A stretch of 64,000 bases of DNA, taken from contig CAZEAB010000003.1 in assembly GCA_964510085.1 (NCBI GenBank), forward strand, positions 18,276-82,275, in the 5' to 3' direction. Positions 2,917 to 26,063 of this stretch are shown one piece after another. How positions within the stretch are numbered: the stretch's first letter is position 1; each line of letters starts with the position of its first letter. The position numbers and the translations under genes were made by a program. The DNA is from an uncultured Methanosarcinales archaeon (GTDB lineage Archaea; Nanobdellota; Nanobdellia; Woesearchaeales; GW2011-AR9). The notes beneath the pieces are model-generated. The model searched no databases. It saw only the letters and a program-made list of their open reading frames with translations, and had not been told where the DNA came from.

Positions 2917-3004
2917 GCGTGTGTCAAGGGTAGCGCCCTGACTAGTCGAGACGGGTACCCCAAAGGGGTACGATATCCGTCGTGCCCTACCCAAAGACAC
3001 ACAC
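2917..3004. ncRNA. GC-rich structured RNA element, family copy 1 (unclassified)
   Basis: Starts 3 nt after the stop codon. Nested helices: GTGTGTC/GACACAC, GGGTAG/CTACCC, GACGG/CCGTC and a perfect 7-bp GTACCCC-AAA-GGGGTAC hairpin with a 3'-side bulge GATAT. Shares blocks GCCCTGACT, CGAG and GTGC with 8108-8205 and 43660-43778. Transcribed strand not established. Confidence 0.5.
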
Positions 3005-3050
3005 TAAGGAATAGAAACATTTTTATTCTTCTTTTTTTCTTCTTGACATT

Positions 3051-3635
3051 ATGGGTAAATCTTTATTGAAGTCACAAAAACTAAAACAAGCAGTTGTTTT
3101 AACACTTATGTTCTTAATAGCACTTGGATTTATGGTTCCTGGTTTTCTTAATGCTCCCCTATCTAATGAAGATGGTGGAACATACGTAGAACCACGATTA
3201 TGCCAATCAGATAATGATTGCTATTTAACATGTGATAATAAGCCGGTTAAAGTTCTTTGTTCACAGAATTTATGTTTTCAGAATTCTTGTAAAGAATATT
3301 CTCCTTATCAATTTATAGAAAATGCTGTATCCTTTTCACTAGATGTACAAGCAGATAATAGTAATGTCAATCTTATTCCTCAAGCTAATAATCTCTTCGT
3401 AACCGCTGAAAAAGGAAAAATCAATGTGCACACCTATTCTCTTCCATTAGGAGTTGTATTAGATCGTCTTGGAGTAACTTTTACAAACACCTGTGCACAA
3501 ATTAATACAAATTCTTATTGTGTACCTGAATGGAATGTATCTATCATCAAAAATGGAAATCATTCCAGTTTACAGGCTGTTGCATTACAAGATGACGATG
3601 TGAAGATTCTTATTGAGAAGGAAGACTTCAACTGA
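3051..3635 (+). CDS. Cys-rich secreted/membrane-anchored protein, unknown function
   Basis: N-terminal TM/signal (AVVLTLMFLIALGFMVPGF) followed by CQSDNDCYLTCDNKPVKVLCSQNLCFQNSC. Confidence 0.6.
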   Translation: MGKSLLKSQKLKQAVVLTLMFLIALGFMVPGFLNAPLSNEDGGTYVEPRLCQSDNDCYLTCDNKPVKVLCSQNLCFQNSCKEYSPYQFIENAVSFSLDVQADNSNVNLIPQANNLFVTAEKGKINVHTYSLPLGVVLDRLGVTFTNTCAQINTNSYCVPEWNVSIIKNGNHSSLQAVALQDDDVKILIEKEDFN

Positions 3636-3694
3636 AATTGAACTCTTTGTAATGTTTATATACTATCTTTATTCTATAGGTGTTGGTGATTAAC

Positions 3695-4519
3695 ATGATA
3701 CAAAAACAATTACATAAATTAAAAGAAAATTGGTTACTTGTTGCTTTATTTCTAGTAGCAATTATTTTTGTCTCCGGAATAAACCCTGTTTCTTCAGGAT
3801 TTAGTAAAGTAGGTTCCACAATGGAGTATGCAATGGCAGAACCATCTGATTTCTACGATTCTGGATTTGCACCAGAGATACAGGAAAGGAAGATAATACA
3901 AACACTTTCATTGTTAACAGAAGTGAGGAGAGGTTCATACACAGATAATGAACAAAAAATGAAAGCAATAGTAATTTCCTCTGGTTCTTTGATAGTAAAT
4001 GAAAATGTAAATACACACGACGATTCTAAATCCGGTTATTATCAAATTCAAGTTGATTCTTCAAAAGCAGATGCAATAATGGATCAATTAAAAGGAATTG
4101 GAAAAGTAACGTCTTTGTACAATAATAAAAGAGATATTACAAGCAGTTACACAGATACAAAGATAGAATTAGACAGTGAGAAACGAAGATTGACAAAGTA
4201 TAACCAAATGTTCTCTGAATCTAAGAATGTAAATGAGAAGATCCAACTAACTAATCTAATTTTTGATCAAGAACGAAGAGTAAAATACCTTGAAGAAAGA
4301 TTACAAAACCAAGATGAAAAAGTTGATTATACAACCATTTCTTTCTCAATGACAGAAAAGCAATCTGAATGGGCAAACATCGCATTTACAAGTTTAGGCA
4401 ACCTGGTACGAAGTTTAGTAAATAGTGTTAATACTTTACTACATCTTATCTTTGTAATCTTGCCATATGCAGTAATTGGTTTAATTGGATTGTTTGTATA
4501 TAGAAAGATTAAGAAGTAA
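3695..4519 (+). CDS. DUF4349-like membrane protein
   Basis: N-terminal TM, central coiled-coil region (KIELDSEKRRLTKYNQM..ERRVKYLEERLQNQ) and C-terminal TM, as in DUF4349. ATG 3695 preferred over GTG 3680. Confidence 0.55.
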   Translation: MIQKQLHKLKENWLLVALFLVAIIFVSGINPVSSGFSKVGSTMEYAMAEPSDFYDSGFAPEIQERKIIQTLSLLTEVRRGSYTDNEQKMKAIVISSGSLIVNENVNTHDDSKSGYYQIQVDSSKADAIMDQLKGIGKVTSLYNNKRDITSSYTDTKIELDSEKRRLTKYNQMFSESKNVNEKIQLTNLIFDQERRVKYLEERLQNQDEKVDYTTISFSMTEKQSEWANIAFTSLGNLVRSLVNSVNTLLHLIFVILPYAVIGLIGLFVYRKIKK

Positions 4520-4575
4520 ATTTATTTTTTTAATTTATTTTTTAAAATTTTATCTAAAAAATGACTGAAAATACA

Positions 4576-5169
4576 TTAGATTTTCAATTTATTTTTTATT
4601 AATTCTATAAACAAGTATAATACAATAACTGTAACTCCTCCCAAAAGAAACCAAAGAGCAAGGTCTGGTTGTTGGACAACAGGCGCAGATTTCATTGCTT
4701 GTGGGACAGCTTCCATCATAGAATCTGCGGCAATTTCTTGAACAGCAAAAGAAGATTTTTCCATTACAAAAGAACCGCTATCTTGAACAAACTTAATAAT
4801 CGCACTAATTCCCACTATTCCAATAGCAACAGGCAATATGTTCTTCAACTTCTCTCTTAACCCACTTACTTTCTTAGGAGCAATAATAATATATTTGTTT
4901 GCAAGTTTGTAATGTTTGACTTCTCTGCCCTTTGTACTATAGTGGAATTCTTCTACATGTACTAGGCTAGATTCTACTAATTTTTGTAAATGATAATGAA
5001 CTGTAGAGATAGGAATATCTAAAGACTTAGCGATAGAAGATTCGGAATCATGATCTTTCTCAGCAAGATAATTTAAAATCTTACGGGAAGTATCACTTGT
5101 AATGGTCTCAGCTAATTTCTTTGTTTTAGTTTCATTTAAATCTACTAGCAGGAAGTTGTTTTTACTCAT
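4576..5169 (-). CDS. ArsR-type winged-helix regulator with C-terminal transmembrane segments
   Basis: HTH 'SSIAKSLDIPISTVHYHLQKLVESSLV' followed by two hydrophobic helices (ILPVAIGIVGISAII; LALWFLLGGVTVIVLYLFI). Confidence 0.7.
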   Translation of the reverse strand: MSKNNFLLVDLNETKTKKLAETITSDTSRKILNYLAEKDHDSESSIAKSLDIPISTVHYHLQKLVESSLVHVEEFHYSTKGREVKHYKLANKYIIIAPKKVSGLREKLKNILPVAIGIVGISAIIKFVQDSGSFVMEKSSFAVQEIAADSMMEAVPQAMKSAPVVQQPDLALWFLLGGVTVIVLYLFIELIKNKLKI

Positions 5170-23245: not shown

Positions 23246-23779
23246 ATGGATAACGCTATTGCATTACTTGAAAACGACTTAAAAAGTGCTGTTGCAATTC
23301 AATTAGTTCGTAACAGATTTTCTATTATAGCAGTACATTTTGGAGAACAGAAAGAAGAAATTGTTGATCTTGCACATAGATTGGGTGTTCGTTACATTTA
23401 TTTTATTCCATTTGAAGATTATGAAGACGTTTTACTTAATAAATTAGCAATGATGAAAATGGCAGAATTCGTTGCAGATAAAGAAAACGCAAAAGCCATT
23501 ATTACGGGAGAACATATCCCATTAATTGCAAGTAATCATCTTGAAGCAACAAAAATAATTAATACTCAATTAAACAAAACTGTTGTGCGGCCAGTATTTA
23601 GTTTAACAGAAGAGGAAGTGCTACGAATTGCCAATGAAAATGAACTTCCTCCCATGAAAATTTCTCCTTCATTAGATTTAGTAAATCAGAATACAGATAA
23701 TGCTATCTCAAAAATACGTAAAATAATCCCCCTTCTTCACGAAAACTTAAAAAACTCCCAGGTAATTGAAGTATCATGA
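23246..23779 (+). CDS. ThiI-like adenine-nucleotide alpha-hydrolase domain protein with degenerate PP-loop
   Basis: '[23 protein letters not shown]' aligns with ThiI 'LLSGGIDSPVA..ALHF', but SGGxDS is lost. '[16 protein letters not shown]' and '[13 protein letters not shown]' match the ThiI C-terminal half. No THUMP domain. ATGA overlap with cysS. Confidence 0.55.
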
Positions 23780-24489
23780 AAATATTTAATACATTATCTC
23801 AGAAAAAGGAGACATTTAAACCATTAGGAAAAACAGTAAATTATTACCAATGTGGTCCCACGGTTTATTTGTATGCACATATCGGAAATTTACGTAGTTA
23901 CATCTTTGGTGATATCCTTAAGAGAACACTCTTATTTAATGATTATAAAGTAAAACATGTAATGAACATAACTGATGTAGGCCATTTAACATCTGATGCA
24001 GATTCTGGTGAAGATAAGATGTTGAAAGGAGCGAAACGTGAAAAGAAAACAGTATGGGAAATCGCGGAATTTTATACAAATGCGTTCAAAGAAGATATCT
24101 CCAAATTAAATATTATCTCTCCTTCTATTTGGTGTAAAGCAACAGACCATATTAAAGAACAAATTGATATGATTACTCTATTAGAGAAGAAAGGATTTAC
24201 TTATACTTCGGGAGGTAATGTCTACTTTGATACTACCAAATTAAAAGATTATGGGAAGTTAGCTAGATTAGATTTGAAAGCTTCAATGAAATCTAGAGTA
24301 AAAAAAGATGTTAACAAGAAAAACCCACATGATTTTGTTCTGTGGTTTACAAAATCTAAATTTGACAAGCAGGAGATGAAATGGGATTGTGTTCTTGACA
24401 TGACTTTAACCGATGAAGAATATGAGAGTTTAAAGAAAGAAGCCAAACTTAACAAAAATCTAGACATCTTGGAGGTCGAAGATGTCTAA
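23776..24489 (+). CDS. cysS: Cysteinyl-tRNA synthetase, N-terminal fragment
   Basis: '[19 protein letters not shown]' (zinc Cys + HIGH), NITDVGH, '[14 protein letters not shown]'. It then diverges into a non-CysRS 33-aa tail ([33 protein letters not shown]) and a stop. Confidence 0.9.
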
Positions 24490-25310
24490 AGATTTTTGCA
24501 AAAGCGGTTGTGGCAACAAAGCTACTCATAAAGGATGGTGTAAGATAAAATGGAGGTCTGGTAATAAGTTCGGTGTTGCATGTCCGATTGTTGAGAAGAA
24601 AAGAGGAAGATCTATCTCAAGATTTAGATTAGAAGAAGCGAAATTAGGTAAGAACCCAATGCAAAATCCAGAAATCTGTCGGAAAAATCATTCTCCAGAA
24701 CGAAATAGGAAAGCTGCTGAAAGCTTAAAGAAACTAGGAAGTATGGGTTTGTTACCTCAGCAAACTGAAAGTGAGGAACTCAAGGAAAGAAGAAGAATCA
24801 GGAATCAAAAGGCACTTCAAAAACTGTGGAAGGAAGGGAAACATCCATTACAGTCTAAATCTAAAAAAGAATTTGAACGTATTAAAAGAAAGATATCAAA
24901 AACTTTATCTTTAGGGATAATTGAAGGTAAAATAAAACCATCTTATGGCGGAAAAAGAGTTTCTTATAAAAATTTAATATTGAGATCAACATGGGAGAAG
25001 GAAGTAGCTCAATTTTTAGATAAGAATAATATTAAATGGGAGTATGAGAATATGATTATACCCTATTACGACATAGAAAGAAATGTGGTGGCAAATACAA
25101 TCCCAGACTTTTATTTACCTGAATTTAATGTTGTGATTGAGGTAAAAGGAAGAGGGTATGATTCTCTTCAAACAAAAGATAAAATGGAAGCAATTTCCGC
25201 GCTTGGCTACAATACTTTTTTATTTGGTGAAACTCATATGAAACGTATTAGGCACGACGATCAGAGAATAATCAAAGCTATTAAAAATGAAAAAAATTAA
25301 AGTAAAATTA
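24388..25310 (+). mobile_element. Homing-endonuclease gene insertion splitting cysS (boundaries approximate)
   Basis: CysRS similarity stops after codon D (24387) and resumes at about 25311 (IGYPGWHLECS), in a different frame. The interval is filled by the endonuclease-like ORF and its GGAGGT SD. Confidence 0.7.
24482..25300 (+). CDS. Free-standing homing-endonuclease-like protein (Cys/His N-terminus, 2x NUMOD3-like, C-terminal PD-(D/E)XK nuclease)
   Basis: NUMOD3-like '[29 protein letters not shown]' and '[24 protein letters not shown]'. Nuclease-like '[21 protein letters not shown]...[17 protein letters not shown]'. Overlaps both cysS fragments. Confidence 0.7.
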
Positions 25311-26063
25311 ATCGGATATCCTGGCTGGCACTTAGAATGTTCTGCAATGGCTTCTAAATATCTAGGGAAGCAGTTTGACATTCATTGTGGTGGAATTGAC
25401 CACATATCTGTACACCATACAAACGAAATAGCACAATCAGAAGCAGCCCATGGAAAGAAATGGGTAAAATATTGGATGCATAACGAATTTCTTGTGTTGA
25501 GTAAGGGAGAAAAAATGGCCAAATCTGGAGATAACTTTTTGACGTTATCTGTATTAGAAGATAAAGGCTATTCTCCATTAGATTACCGATACTTCTGTTT
25601 AGGAACACATTACAGAAATCCGTTAATGTTCTCATTTAAAGCACTTGATTCAGCTAGAATTGCACGTAAGAAGTTATTTGATCGAGTTCTATCATTAAAA
25701 GGAAGTAAACATACTAAGGACCATAAAACCGGAAGAAAGTATGCAAAACAATTTACTGCAGAGATTAACGACGATTTAAACACTCCTAAGGCACTTGCAG
25801 TGATGTGGGACGTTTTGAAGAGTGATTTATCTGATCATGTAAAGTATTTATTATTATTAGAATTTGACAAAGTCCTTGGATTTAATTTAGGAAGTTTAAA
25901 GAAAGTAGAAGTTCCAGAATCTGTAACTAAATTAGCAGAGGAACGGTTAGTAGCTCGTAACGCTAAGGACTGGAAGAAGTCTGATAAGTTACGTTCAAAG
26001 ATAGAGAAGTTAGGATATAGTATAGCAGATACGAAGGATGGTTATGAGGTTAAAAAGGATTAA
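25287..26063 (+). CDS. cysS: Cysteinyl-tRNA synthetase, C-terminal fragment
   Basis: 'GYPGWHLECSAM', 'HHTNEIAQSE' (zinc His/Glu), KMSKS variant 'KMAKSGDN', and anticodon-binding-domain motifs. ATG 25287 lies inside the endonuclease ORF. Confidence 0.9.
   Translation: MKKIKVKLIGYPGWHLECSAMASKYLGKQFDIHCGGIDHISVHHTNEIAQSEAAHGKKWVKYWMHNEFLVLSKGEKMAKSGDNFLTLSVLEDKGYSPLDYRYFCLGTHYRNPLMFSFKALDSARIARKKLFDRVLSLKGSKHTKDHKTGRKYAKQFTAEINDDLNTPKALAVMWDVLKSDLSDHVKYLLLLEFDKVLGFNLGSLKKVEVPESVTKLAEERLVARNAKDWKKSDKLRSKIEKLGYSIADTKDGYEVKKD

Follow-up and report, generated by a model that had tools for sequence, protein, structure and literature searches.

A probable mobile endonuclease cassette, carrying its own candidate reassembly peptides, splits cysteinyl-tRNA synthetase genes in Archaea and Bacteria

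How might an enzyme of translation persist when its gene is broken within the catalytic core? This question is raised by cysS, the gene for cysteinyl-tRNA synthetase (CysRS), in a stretch of 64,000 nucleotides (nt) from contig CAZEAB010000003.1 of an uncultured archaeon (assembly GCA_964510085.1; positions 18,276 to 82,275), which we call the window. Here the coding sequence of cysS is divided into an N-terminal half (fragment 1) and a C-terminal half (fragment 2), with an open reading frame (ORF) for an endonuclease-like protein between them. We found the same arrangement in diverse archaeal and bacterial lineages, and the inserted block is probably a mobile cassette, with a free-standing gene for a homing-type endonuclease as its core and with reassembly peptides of its own, that leaves its host with a two-piece CysRS.

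The three ORFs lie in three different frames and are chained by overlaps of 8 nt between fragment 1 and the nuclease and 14 nt between the nuclease and fragment 2 (Table 1). Fragment 1 matches positions 8-182 of the 301 positions of the Pfam model tRNA-synt_1e (PF01406), and fragment 2 matches positions 188-299 together with the DALR_2 and CysS_C domains; the NCBIfam cysS models recognize both, in each case with a score under the full-length cut-off, as halves would be expected to give. On the closest solved structure, the CysRS of Borrelia burgdorferi (PDB 3sp1), residues 2-205 of fragment 1 align to 25-229 and residues 9-257 of fragment 2 to 233-500, leaving only 3-4 residues of the conserved S-P-W-G loop unaccounted for. 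Six-frame translation of positions 24300-25400 encodes PWG or SPW in no frame. The class I hallmarks are likewise divided, with HIGN on fragment 1 and KMAKS on fragment 2, as are the zinc ligands equivalent to Escherichia coli C28, C209, H234 and E238: the Cys of CGPTVY is on the N-terminal piece and the other three, in GWHLEC and HHTNEIAQ, are on the C-terminal piece. Hence, the locus does not encode a single-polypeptide CysRS with SPWG preceding GxPGWH, but two ORFs lacking that loop. At the new termini, the tail of fragment 1 has an isoelectric point of 4.1 and a net charge of -6, and the head of fragment 2 has a charge of +4. These observations bear out the original prediction as regards the three overlapping ORFs and their frames, the absence of SPWG, the GGAGGT motif in the tail of fragment 1, the acidic tail and basic head, and the spread of zinc and active-site ligands over both fragments.

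The original prediction had proposed that the point of insertion be defined by alignment with intact relatives. The closest CysRS with an intact SPWG site (protein P0112) comes from an endonuclease-free locus, L029, with a syntenic neighborhood that has transglutaminase-core and thiI-like genes upstream. The cysS DNA of the window and of L029 is 79% identical to the left of the cassette and 71% to its right. Homology breaks off after ..ATG AAA TGG GAT (window position 24387) and restarts at ATC GGA TAT CCT GGC TGG CAC (about 25309-25311). Between these points L029 has the 12 nt TCT CCT TTT GGA, within the empty-site codons ..ATGAAATGGGATTCTCCTTTTGGAATCGGATACCCTGGCTGGCAC.., where the window has a 923-nt block that comprises the tail codons with their stop, the entire nuclease ORF, and the start and head codons of fragment 2. 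The insertion thus lies at the highly conserved SPWG/GxPGWH codons, and its presence or absence is polymorphic among relatives. The GC content across the cassette and its flanks is 0.30-0.37 with no discontinuity, hence there is no compositional island.

Table 1. Features of the split cysS locus, with positions counted from the first letter of the window
Feature	Position	Strand	Remarks
cysS-N ORF (fragment 1)	23776-24489	+	237 aa; N half of CysRS
Nuclease ORF (middle)	24482-25300	+	272 aa
cysS-C ORF (fragment 2)	25287-26063	+	258 aa; C half of CysRS
cysS-N body, aa 1-204	23776..24387	+	zinc-ligand Cys in CGPTVY, HIGN, connective peptide (CP) domain, end ..QEMKWD
Cassette left arm: 33-codon acidic tail and stop codon	24388..24489	+	not present in intact alleles
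GGAGGT Shine-Dalgarno for nuclease ORF	24471..24476	+	inside tail codons L-E-V; 5 nt before ATG 24482
Cassette right arm: 8-codon basic head MKKIKVKL	25287..25310	+	start codon 14 nt inside nuclease ORF; not present in intact alleles
cysS-C body	25311..26063	+	GYPGWHLEC, HHTNEIAQSE, KMAKS, DALR and anticodon-binding domains
Whole cassette, 923 nt	24388..25310	+	replaces 12 nt coding S-P-(W/F)-G; blastn and codon alignment to intact L029
Candidate catalytic residues of the nuclease	E172 24995-24997; D209 25106-25108; E220 25139-25141; K222 25145-25147	+	invariant in 33 members

The protein encoded between the halves appears, from its sequence, to have the modular anatomy typical of free-standing homing endonucleases. 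Its N-terminus has four conserved cysteines (C6, C10, C20 and C34) that would form a 4-Cys zinc ribbon spanning residues 6-34; this is followed, at about 35-147, by a long helical region that resembles NUMOD3, with repeated NPMQN..KNHS..RN and LLPQQ.ES motifs, and, at about 160-250, by a PD-(D/E)xK core resembling T7 endonuclease I. Among 33 members of the family E172, P208-D209, E220 and K222 are invariant, and the four cysteines are invariant or nearly so. The original assignment of this ORF as endonuclease-like is supported by a match to Pfam PF05367 (E=1e-5) and by comparison of the family profile with the PDB, which recovers the catalytic core of T7 endonuclease I (E 2e-6 to 4e-5); endonuclease, resolvase and homing-endonuclease families of PHROG also match the core region. 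With an AlphaFold model (mean predicted local distance difference test score, pLDDT, 86.5) as query, Foldseek returned weak PD-(D/E)xK matches in the PDB (AbaSI, RecE, Vsr and T7 endonuclease I; E about 4e-3 or worse) and, in a library of predicted viral structures, phage proteins of like length and layout (E 1e-10 to 1e-5), whose names include endonuclease I, NUMOD3-domain protein, C2H2 zinc-finger protein and homing endonuclease. An exhaustive profile search delimited a full-length family of about 14 clusters at 50% identity, which occurs only in cysS; beyond a clear gap there are more than 1,100 proteins that share the nuclease domain only, behind other N-terminal modules. The distant relatives in phage genomes are free-standing endonuclease genes. 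A scan of IMG/VR yielded no cassette and a single sequence distantly related to the nuclease domain, and no second copy of the nuclease was found within the window.

In all 21 independent loci that we examined, the order is N half, nuclease, C half. Their hosts are Woesearchaeota, Pacearchaeota, Nanoarchaeota, Aenigmarchaeota, bacteria of the Omnitrophota and probably one bacterium of the Candidate Phyla Radiation (CPR). Searches with fragment 1 recovered many proteins of about 240 residues whose alignments, at 53-76% identity, span 100% of the query and so take in its tail, from Woesearchaeota, Pacearchaeota, Nanoarchaeota and one genome labelled Nealsonbacteria. The nuclease family comprises 89 clusters at 90% identity, nearly all of them full length (there are two short fragments) and with a shared identity of 36-71%. 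When one genome per GTDB species was scanned, the nuclease was present in 18 species, and in every one of them it was flanked by a CysRS N half upstream and a C half downstream; four loci that were fetched by way of their N halves (L001, L004, L024 and L026) have the same arrangement. The chaining of the ORFs is similarly persistent: the stop of the N half and the start of the nuclease overlap by 4-17 nt in 19 of the 21 loci, and the stop of the nuclease and the start of the C half by 4-20 nt in 20 of them. In many archaeal loci the codons at the end of the tail, L-E-V-E/K-D-V = TTGGAGGTnGAnGATG, double as the Shine-Dalgarno sequence and ATG of the nuclease. Three of the loci are from Omnitrophota. 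In one of these, the complete chromosome CP070780.1, the split cysS is found among ispF, a hexapeptide-repeat acetyltransferase gene (probably cysE), tmk, holB and a PSP1-domain gene; the presence of ispF, tmk, holB and the PSP1-domain gene indicates that the host is a genuine bacterium.

Several of these loci have peculiarities of their own. The genome labelled Nealsonbacteria (CP179891.1; complete, 695 kb) has its cassette at positions 2964-3866 of locus L004, adjoining bacterial DnaB and DnaX genes and also a gene for a 300-residue protein with Zn_Ribbon_TF and TFIIB Pfam matches, i.e., an archaeal-type transcription factor in an apparently bacterial genome. Two loci labelled Methanosarcinales (L005 and L018) are on DPANN-like contigs and are probably mis-binned. 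A variant cassette is seen in L013 (3157-3998), L014 (3723-3998) and L018 (132-1358), where the nuclease open frame has 396-434 residues with an extra N-terminal region, and 274-840 nt separate the N half from the nuclease in place of the usual overlap. In the C halves of L019, L020 and L021, RPGWHIED replaces GWHxEC, which places an Asp at the equivalent of the E. coli zinc ligand C209, while the other motifs are kept; these might have a variant metal site or be paralogs of altered function. A scan of metagenomes with a tail-only profile, whose back-translated pattern is too unspecific for loci with a degraded nuclease, gave among the matches listed one duplicate locus and one further locus (L032), the latter lacking a CysRS match in a follow-up tblastn.

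The tail and the head are themselves conserved as peptides. The 58 distinct tails that we collected, from CysRS sequences with identities of 33-76%, share the pattern W-[DE]-x4-h-x-h-[ST]-[DN]-x-E-Y-x2-h-h-K-x-A-x2-N-x-[DN]-h-x-[IF]-L and come in two forms, a short one (..ILEVEDV) and a long one (..EFLKLNKINK..). Their mean net charge is -3.3, as against +4.1 for 26 distinct heads, in which the motif M[KP]K[IV]K.K.. is conserved. Across eight pairs at moderate distance, the proportion of nonsynonymous differences (pN) in the tail is 0.13-0.24 against a proportion of synonymous differences (pS) of 0.40-0.74, and the corresponding values for the nuclease ORF are 0.09-0.26 and 0.41-0.82. The CysRS motifs CGPTVY, HIG(N/H), GWHxEC, HH(T/E)NEIAQ and KM(A/S)KS are retained in most split loci. 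These patterns point to purifying selection on the tail, the head and the nuclease, all as proteins. Two alleles, P0075 and P0296, lack the nuclease gene and encode an unbroken CysRS, where an in-frame linker of 5-10 residues connects tail to head. Such fused alleles are rare (about 2 among roughly 200 sequences); the best interpretation is that they lost the nuclease gene secondarily. A further contig, L028 (about positions 830-953), encodes an N half that is 100% identical up to ..KKSNKK to that of L023 (2110-2150), which continues in the form of the fused P0075; in L028 this point is followed by GGAGGTG and another ORF (MGEEIKEMYKEQYEICKK..), with no relationship to the nuclease family, and the contig ends about 100 nt on. 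Another element may hence use the same site in cysS.

We modelled the N and C fragments of the window with AlphaFold2 as one chain joined end to end, using an alignment of 94 split, fused and intact relatives. The resulting model has a mean pLDDT of 91.1 and a predicted template-modelling score of 0.90, and superimposes on the E. coli CysRS-tRNA complex (1u0b) with TM scores of 0.79/0.84. In it, the tail folds as a strand (203-210), a helix (213-225) and a second strand (229-235), and the head as a strand (240-249) that lies beside those of the tail and leads directly into GYPGWH; the block-mean pLDDT at the junction is 86-91. Tail and head are thus predicted to form one small β-sheet mini-domain that bridges the break. 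Together with the signs of purifying selection, this mini-domain suggests, indirectly, that the two peptides may be required for assembly or activity of the CysRS.

Several lines of evidence point to movement of the cassette between cysS genes. A neighbor-joining tree of 118 CysRS bodies, built on 145 columns, has split and SPWG-intact genes interleaved at all depths, with at least 20 changes of state, and the nearest neighbor of the window is the intact P0112. The split genes also belong to different CysRS subfamilies: that of the window is Borrelia-type (E 3e-61 with 3sp1 versus 6e-31 with Coxiella), while that of an Omnitrophota locus (L016) is of the classical bacterial type (E 5e-61 with Coxiella 3tqo versus 8e-24 with 3sp1). 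On 3tqo the Omnitrophota N half extends to residue 199 and the C half starts from residue 203, which is the same site. As intact members of both subfamilies carry SPWG, the homologous tail and head that the split ones share must have arrived with the nuclease gene. Where CysRS bodies are 34-42% identical to that of the window, the nucleases are 48-51% and the heads 56-67% identical. For several pairs, the cassette has diverged less at synonymous sites than the cysS sequence on either side; between L016 and L017, for instance, the nuclease has a pS of 0.41 and the tail one of 0.45, as against 0.82-0.90 in the flanks. Sliding-window DNA identity peaks at 81-91% over the tail and nuclease versus 57-74% in the flanks. 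Judged by synonymous sites, the cassette is younger than the gene in which it resides.

Based on these observations, we propose that the cassette took the place of the four SPWG codons in cysS and thereby would provide the upstream half with its acidic 33-residue tail and a stop codon, the nuclease with its own Shine-Dalgarno sequence and ATG, written within the tail codons, and the downstream half with a start codon and a basic 8-residue head. One mRNA with three ORFs would be translated by coupling, so that the two CysRS pieces are made together. They would then reassemble non-covalently, with the tail (β-α-β) and the head (β) zipping into a mixed mini-domain at the break, which falls after the CP domain and ahead of the second Rossmann half; this would restore both the Rossmann fold and the zinc site with its shared ligands. 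The nuclease, for its part, would cut cysS alleles that still hold SPWG, and repair would transfer the cassette in full, along with its tail and head, to new alleles. Homing with such repair copying would account for the occupation of the same codon in unrelated CysRS lineages (DPANN, Omnitrophota and probably CPR). With less assurance, we lean towards a more far-reaching reading: that this is a self-contained gene-splitting homing cassette, in which a portable clasp of acidic β-α-β tail and basic β head, combined with built-in coupling signals, allows it to invade the core of an essential aminoacyl-tRNA synthetase (aaRS) in both Archaea and Bacteria at little cost.

Certain observations weigh against such a mobile cassette with a working two-piece enzyme. 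The exchange for 12 nt is unlike the simple insertion expected of classical homing, and a conserved loop, SPWG, is lost from the split CysRS. The neighbor-joining tree is short, with its 145 columns, and noisy. The AlphaFold model was obtained with an artificially fused chain and hence indicates compatibility with a two-chain assembly rather than proof of it. Finally, the nuclease ORF is intact in every locus seen, which is unusual for a purely selfish homing gene; this may reflect ongoing homing, domestication, or a requirement that the C half be translated by ribosomes that have just finished at the stop of the nuclease.

The last of these points favors the alternative that survives best, namely that the split is ancient and vertically inherited, with a domesticated nuclease kept by host need or for translation coupling of the C half. 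The intact nuclease in its place in 21 of 21 loci, the overlaps linking all three ORFs and the small full-length family with its restriction to cysS would all fit such a history. We nevertheless consider it unlikely: split alleles are polyphyletic among intact ones, the cassette occupies an identical site in distinct CysRS subfamilies and in hosts from two domains of life, it is less diverged than its flanks at synonymous sites, and nuclease-free alleles exist. Moreover, the catalytic residues of the nuclease are invariant, which coupling alone would not require.

Production of a single polypeptide after all, through removal of the interruption as a group I or II intron, a bulge-helix-bulge (BHB) intron, an intein or a split intein, or through its bypass by the ribosome, appears highly improbable. 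The layout does recall the "fractured genes" in which a free-standing endonuclease lies between the halves of a split intein (PMC2677866), and a separate BHB-like mini-insert occurs elsewhere in the cysS of relatives. Against this, the locus has three frames with stops; the tail and head together amount to 41 residues, which is too small for a Hedgehog/intein (HINT) fold; both are conserved at the amino-acid level while synonymous change is free; and removal of the cassette would not bring back SPWG. A scan of the window against Rfam at gathering score was without matches, and a permissive scan (E up to 10) of 24200-25450 turned up nothing relevant. A group I or II intron was accordingly rejected, there being no match to a ribozyme core in the Rfam scans and the arms being selected as protein. 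An intein or split intein was also rejected: the first residue of the tail is variable (C, S, A, F, T, G, P, D or V), a C-terminal HN is lacking, G[YFR]PGWH comes after the head, so that a +1 Cys/Ser/Thr is absent, and the frames differ. The original prediction had held that activity would need either non-covalent reassembly or RNA/protein splicing; the first of these is upheld by our results, and the second is unsupported.

The BHB-like mini-insert is a second interruption of cysS, of 28-31 nt, in four relatives: L005 (about 3335-3365), L013 (about 2487-2514), L014 (about 3052-3082) and L029 (about 4862-4891). It sits in the codons of the zinc-Cys motif, between ..TGY GGG CCA A and CC GTN TAY, and reads ACAA..hairpin..TTGGGCAT(T/G). 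It causes a +1 frameshift in three of the loci and introduces an in-frame TGA in the fourth, and its excision restores C-G-P-T-V-Y in all four. RNAfold predicts the same BHB-like layout in the four mini-inserts, with an inner hairpin that is different, and compensating, in each. We regard it as a candidate BHB mini-intron in a DPANN mRNA; the proteins P0211, P0231, P0250 and P0034 start oddly at this point. The window is free of the mini-insert, and its CGPTVY is intact at about 23848-23866.

A shade less probable still is that the split cysS is a pseudogene, recently inactivated, with cysteinylation supplied by another gene or by a host organism. In its favor, the catalytic core is broken with the loss of the SPWG loop, and DPANN archaea are often symbionts. 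However, the halves, the tail and the head appear to be under purifying selection across at least 58 lineages, no frameshifts or stops have accumulated, and no decaying halves were seen in relatives. Furthermore, no second cysS was found within the window, where a tblastn search with an intact CysRS recovered the two halves only. Since the motifs of the split genes are kept, pN lies far below pS in the tail and the nuclease, and tails and heads are conserved, a recent inactivation is excluded. Of the two outcomes offered by the original prediction, a functional two-piece enzyme or a very recent inactivation, the first is therefore supported, and the second is refuted by the 58 tails from CysRS of 33-76% identity and the selection on them.

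The nuclease protein of the window was found on 10 contigs. In four of these loci, recovered from different samples in JGI, ENA and Logan assemblies, identity to the window is 100% over the whole locus, and two further contigs differ by 1-3 positions, one of which is a 1-nt indel in an A run. An artefact of assembly or binning, suggested by the metagenomic source and allowed for in the original prediction, has a negligible probability: a chimeric assembly is excluded because replicate assemblies from different samples agree, and the same architecture is present in complete chromosomes. The indel, at about position 600 of L037 (about window position 24300, the A7 run in gtaaaaaaagatg), shifts the frame of fragment 1 before the tail, giving a 200-aa call, and could be a sequencing error or a natural knockout allele.

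The surroundings of the locus contain further overlaps and insertions. A thiI-like ORF of 177 residues (window 23246-23779), which matches part of PF02568 only, terminates in an ATGA that overlaps the start of cysS-N at 23776, so that at least four ORFs are chained by overlaps. In L029, a 378-residue ORF with a faint LAGLIDADG_3 match and a Peptidase_M23 gene (3640-4776) lie between thiI and cysS; both are missing from the window. Judged from these genes of L029 and the other inserts, the cysS neighborhood looks like a hot spot for mobile elements.

The closest known parallel is the nrdA gene of phage Aeh1, which Friedrich and colleagues reportedly described in 2007 as a "gene in pieces". There, the HNH endonuclease gene mobE splits nrdA (nrdA-a/mobE/nrdA-b), and the ribonucleotide reductase requires for its activity a set of unique tails of opposite charge, which arose with this insertion; such tails were proposed as a general antidote to fragmentation by mobile elements, with other cases being predicted (Crona et al., 2011; PMC3045599). 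The cysS locus shows the same defining traits: a free-standing endonuclease gene divides an essential enzyme and distributes its active-site residues over two polypeptides, the endonuclease ORF overlaps the downstream half, and the new termini bear oppositely charged tails that unsplit homologs lack. The differences are equally clear. MobE is an HNH nuclease and that of the cassette a PD-(D/E)xK one; Aeh1 is a single phage, whereas the cassette is found in dozens of archaeal and bacterial cellular lineages; and its tail and head are a conserved homologous module that entered different subfamilies and is predicted to form a single mini-domain. Further, the charge polarity is reversed and the target is an aaRS.

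The fractured genes of environmental microbes, in which split inteins have a free-standing endonuclease between their halves (Dassa et al., 2009; PMC2677866), resemble the cassette in their order (N part plus appendage, endonuclease ORF, appendage plus C part) and in the restriction-endonuclease-like fold of the nuclease. They differ from it in that the cassette lacks intein blocks and nucleophiles, with appendages of about 41 residues versus roughly 130 or more for HINT, so that its product must stay in two pieces; moreover, the nuclease is of the Vsr/EDxHD type there and T7 endonuclease I-like here (PDB 3r3p match, E=0.16). The cassette nuclease shares the catalytic core type E...PD...(D/E)xK with I-Ssp6803I and T7 endonuclease I. 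Unlike the former, which is encoded in a tRNA intron, and the latter, a Holliday-junction resolvase without a DNA-targeting module, it adds a zinc ribbon and NUMOD3-like helices and is free-standing within a protein-coding gene.

Synthetases in two pieces are also known in other settings, and the LeuRS of Aquifex aeolicus is such an alpha/beta enzyme. The AlaRS of Nanoarchaeum equitans is naturally split, and split genes of DPANN archaea, including those for tRNA synthetases, have been attributed to genome reduction (PMC6349945). Both enzymes, like the split CysRS, are synthetases of two polypeptides that are divided in or near the catalytic or CP region. In neither is an endonuclease placed between the two pieces; both splits are lineage-specific, and neither is known to be mobile or to bring a shared reassembly module. 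Full-text searches of the literature turned up neither a split CysRS nor any aaRS divided by an endonuclease gene, in agreement with the original prediction. The principle is thus that of the Aeh1 NrdA, and what is new is the nuclease family, the cellular hosts in two domains, the aaRS target, and the inclusion of the reassembly module in the mobile unit. The recurrence in Archaea and Bacteria, the travel of tail and head with the nuclease, and the existence of unsplit fused derivatives go beyond the original prediction.

In practical terms, present annotations call the halves "class I tRNA ligase family protein" or "partial", and the cysS that they make up would be counted as frameshifted or missing. 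If our interpretation is correct, the cassette represents a candidate new family of sequence-specific nucleases, and its tail and head a small, natural and transferable heterodimerizing or reassembly tag for protein engineering. It appears that a class I aaRS can tolerate a break that separates the CP domain from the second Rossmann half and leaves its zinc ligands on separate chains. Self-splicing introns and inteins are the textbook means by which homing endonuclease genes spare the essential genes that they invade; the cassette, if true, would add a third general route to the phenotypic neutrality of homing elements. It would also turn a single phage example into a recurrent cross-domain family, in which the reassembly module moves with the nuclease, and at least some of the "split genes" of DPANN archaea would then owe their origin to mobile elements and would not testify to genome reduction or antiquity.

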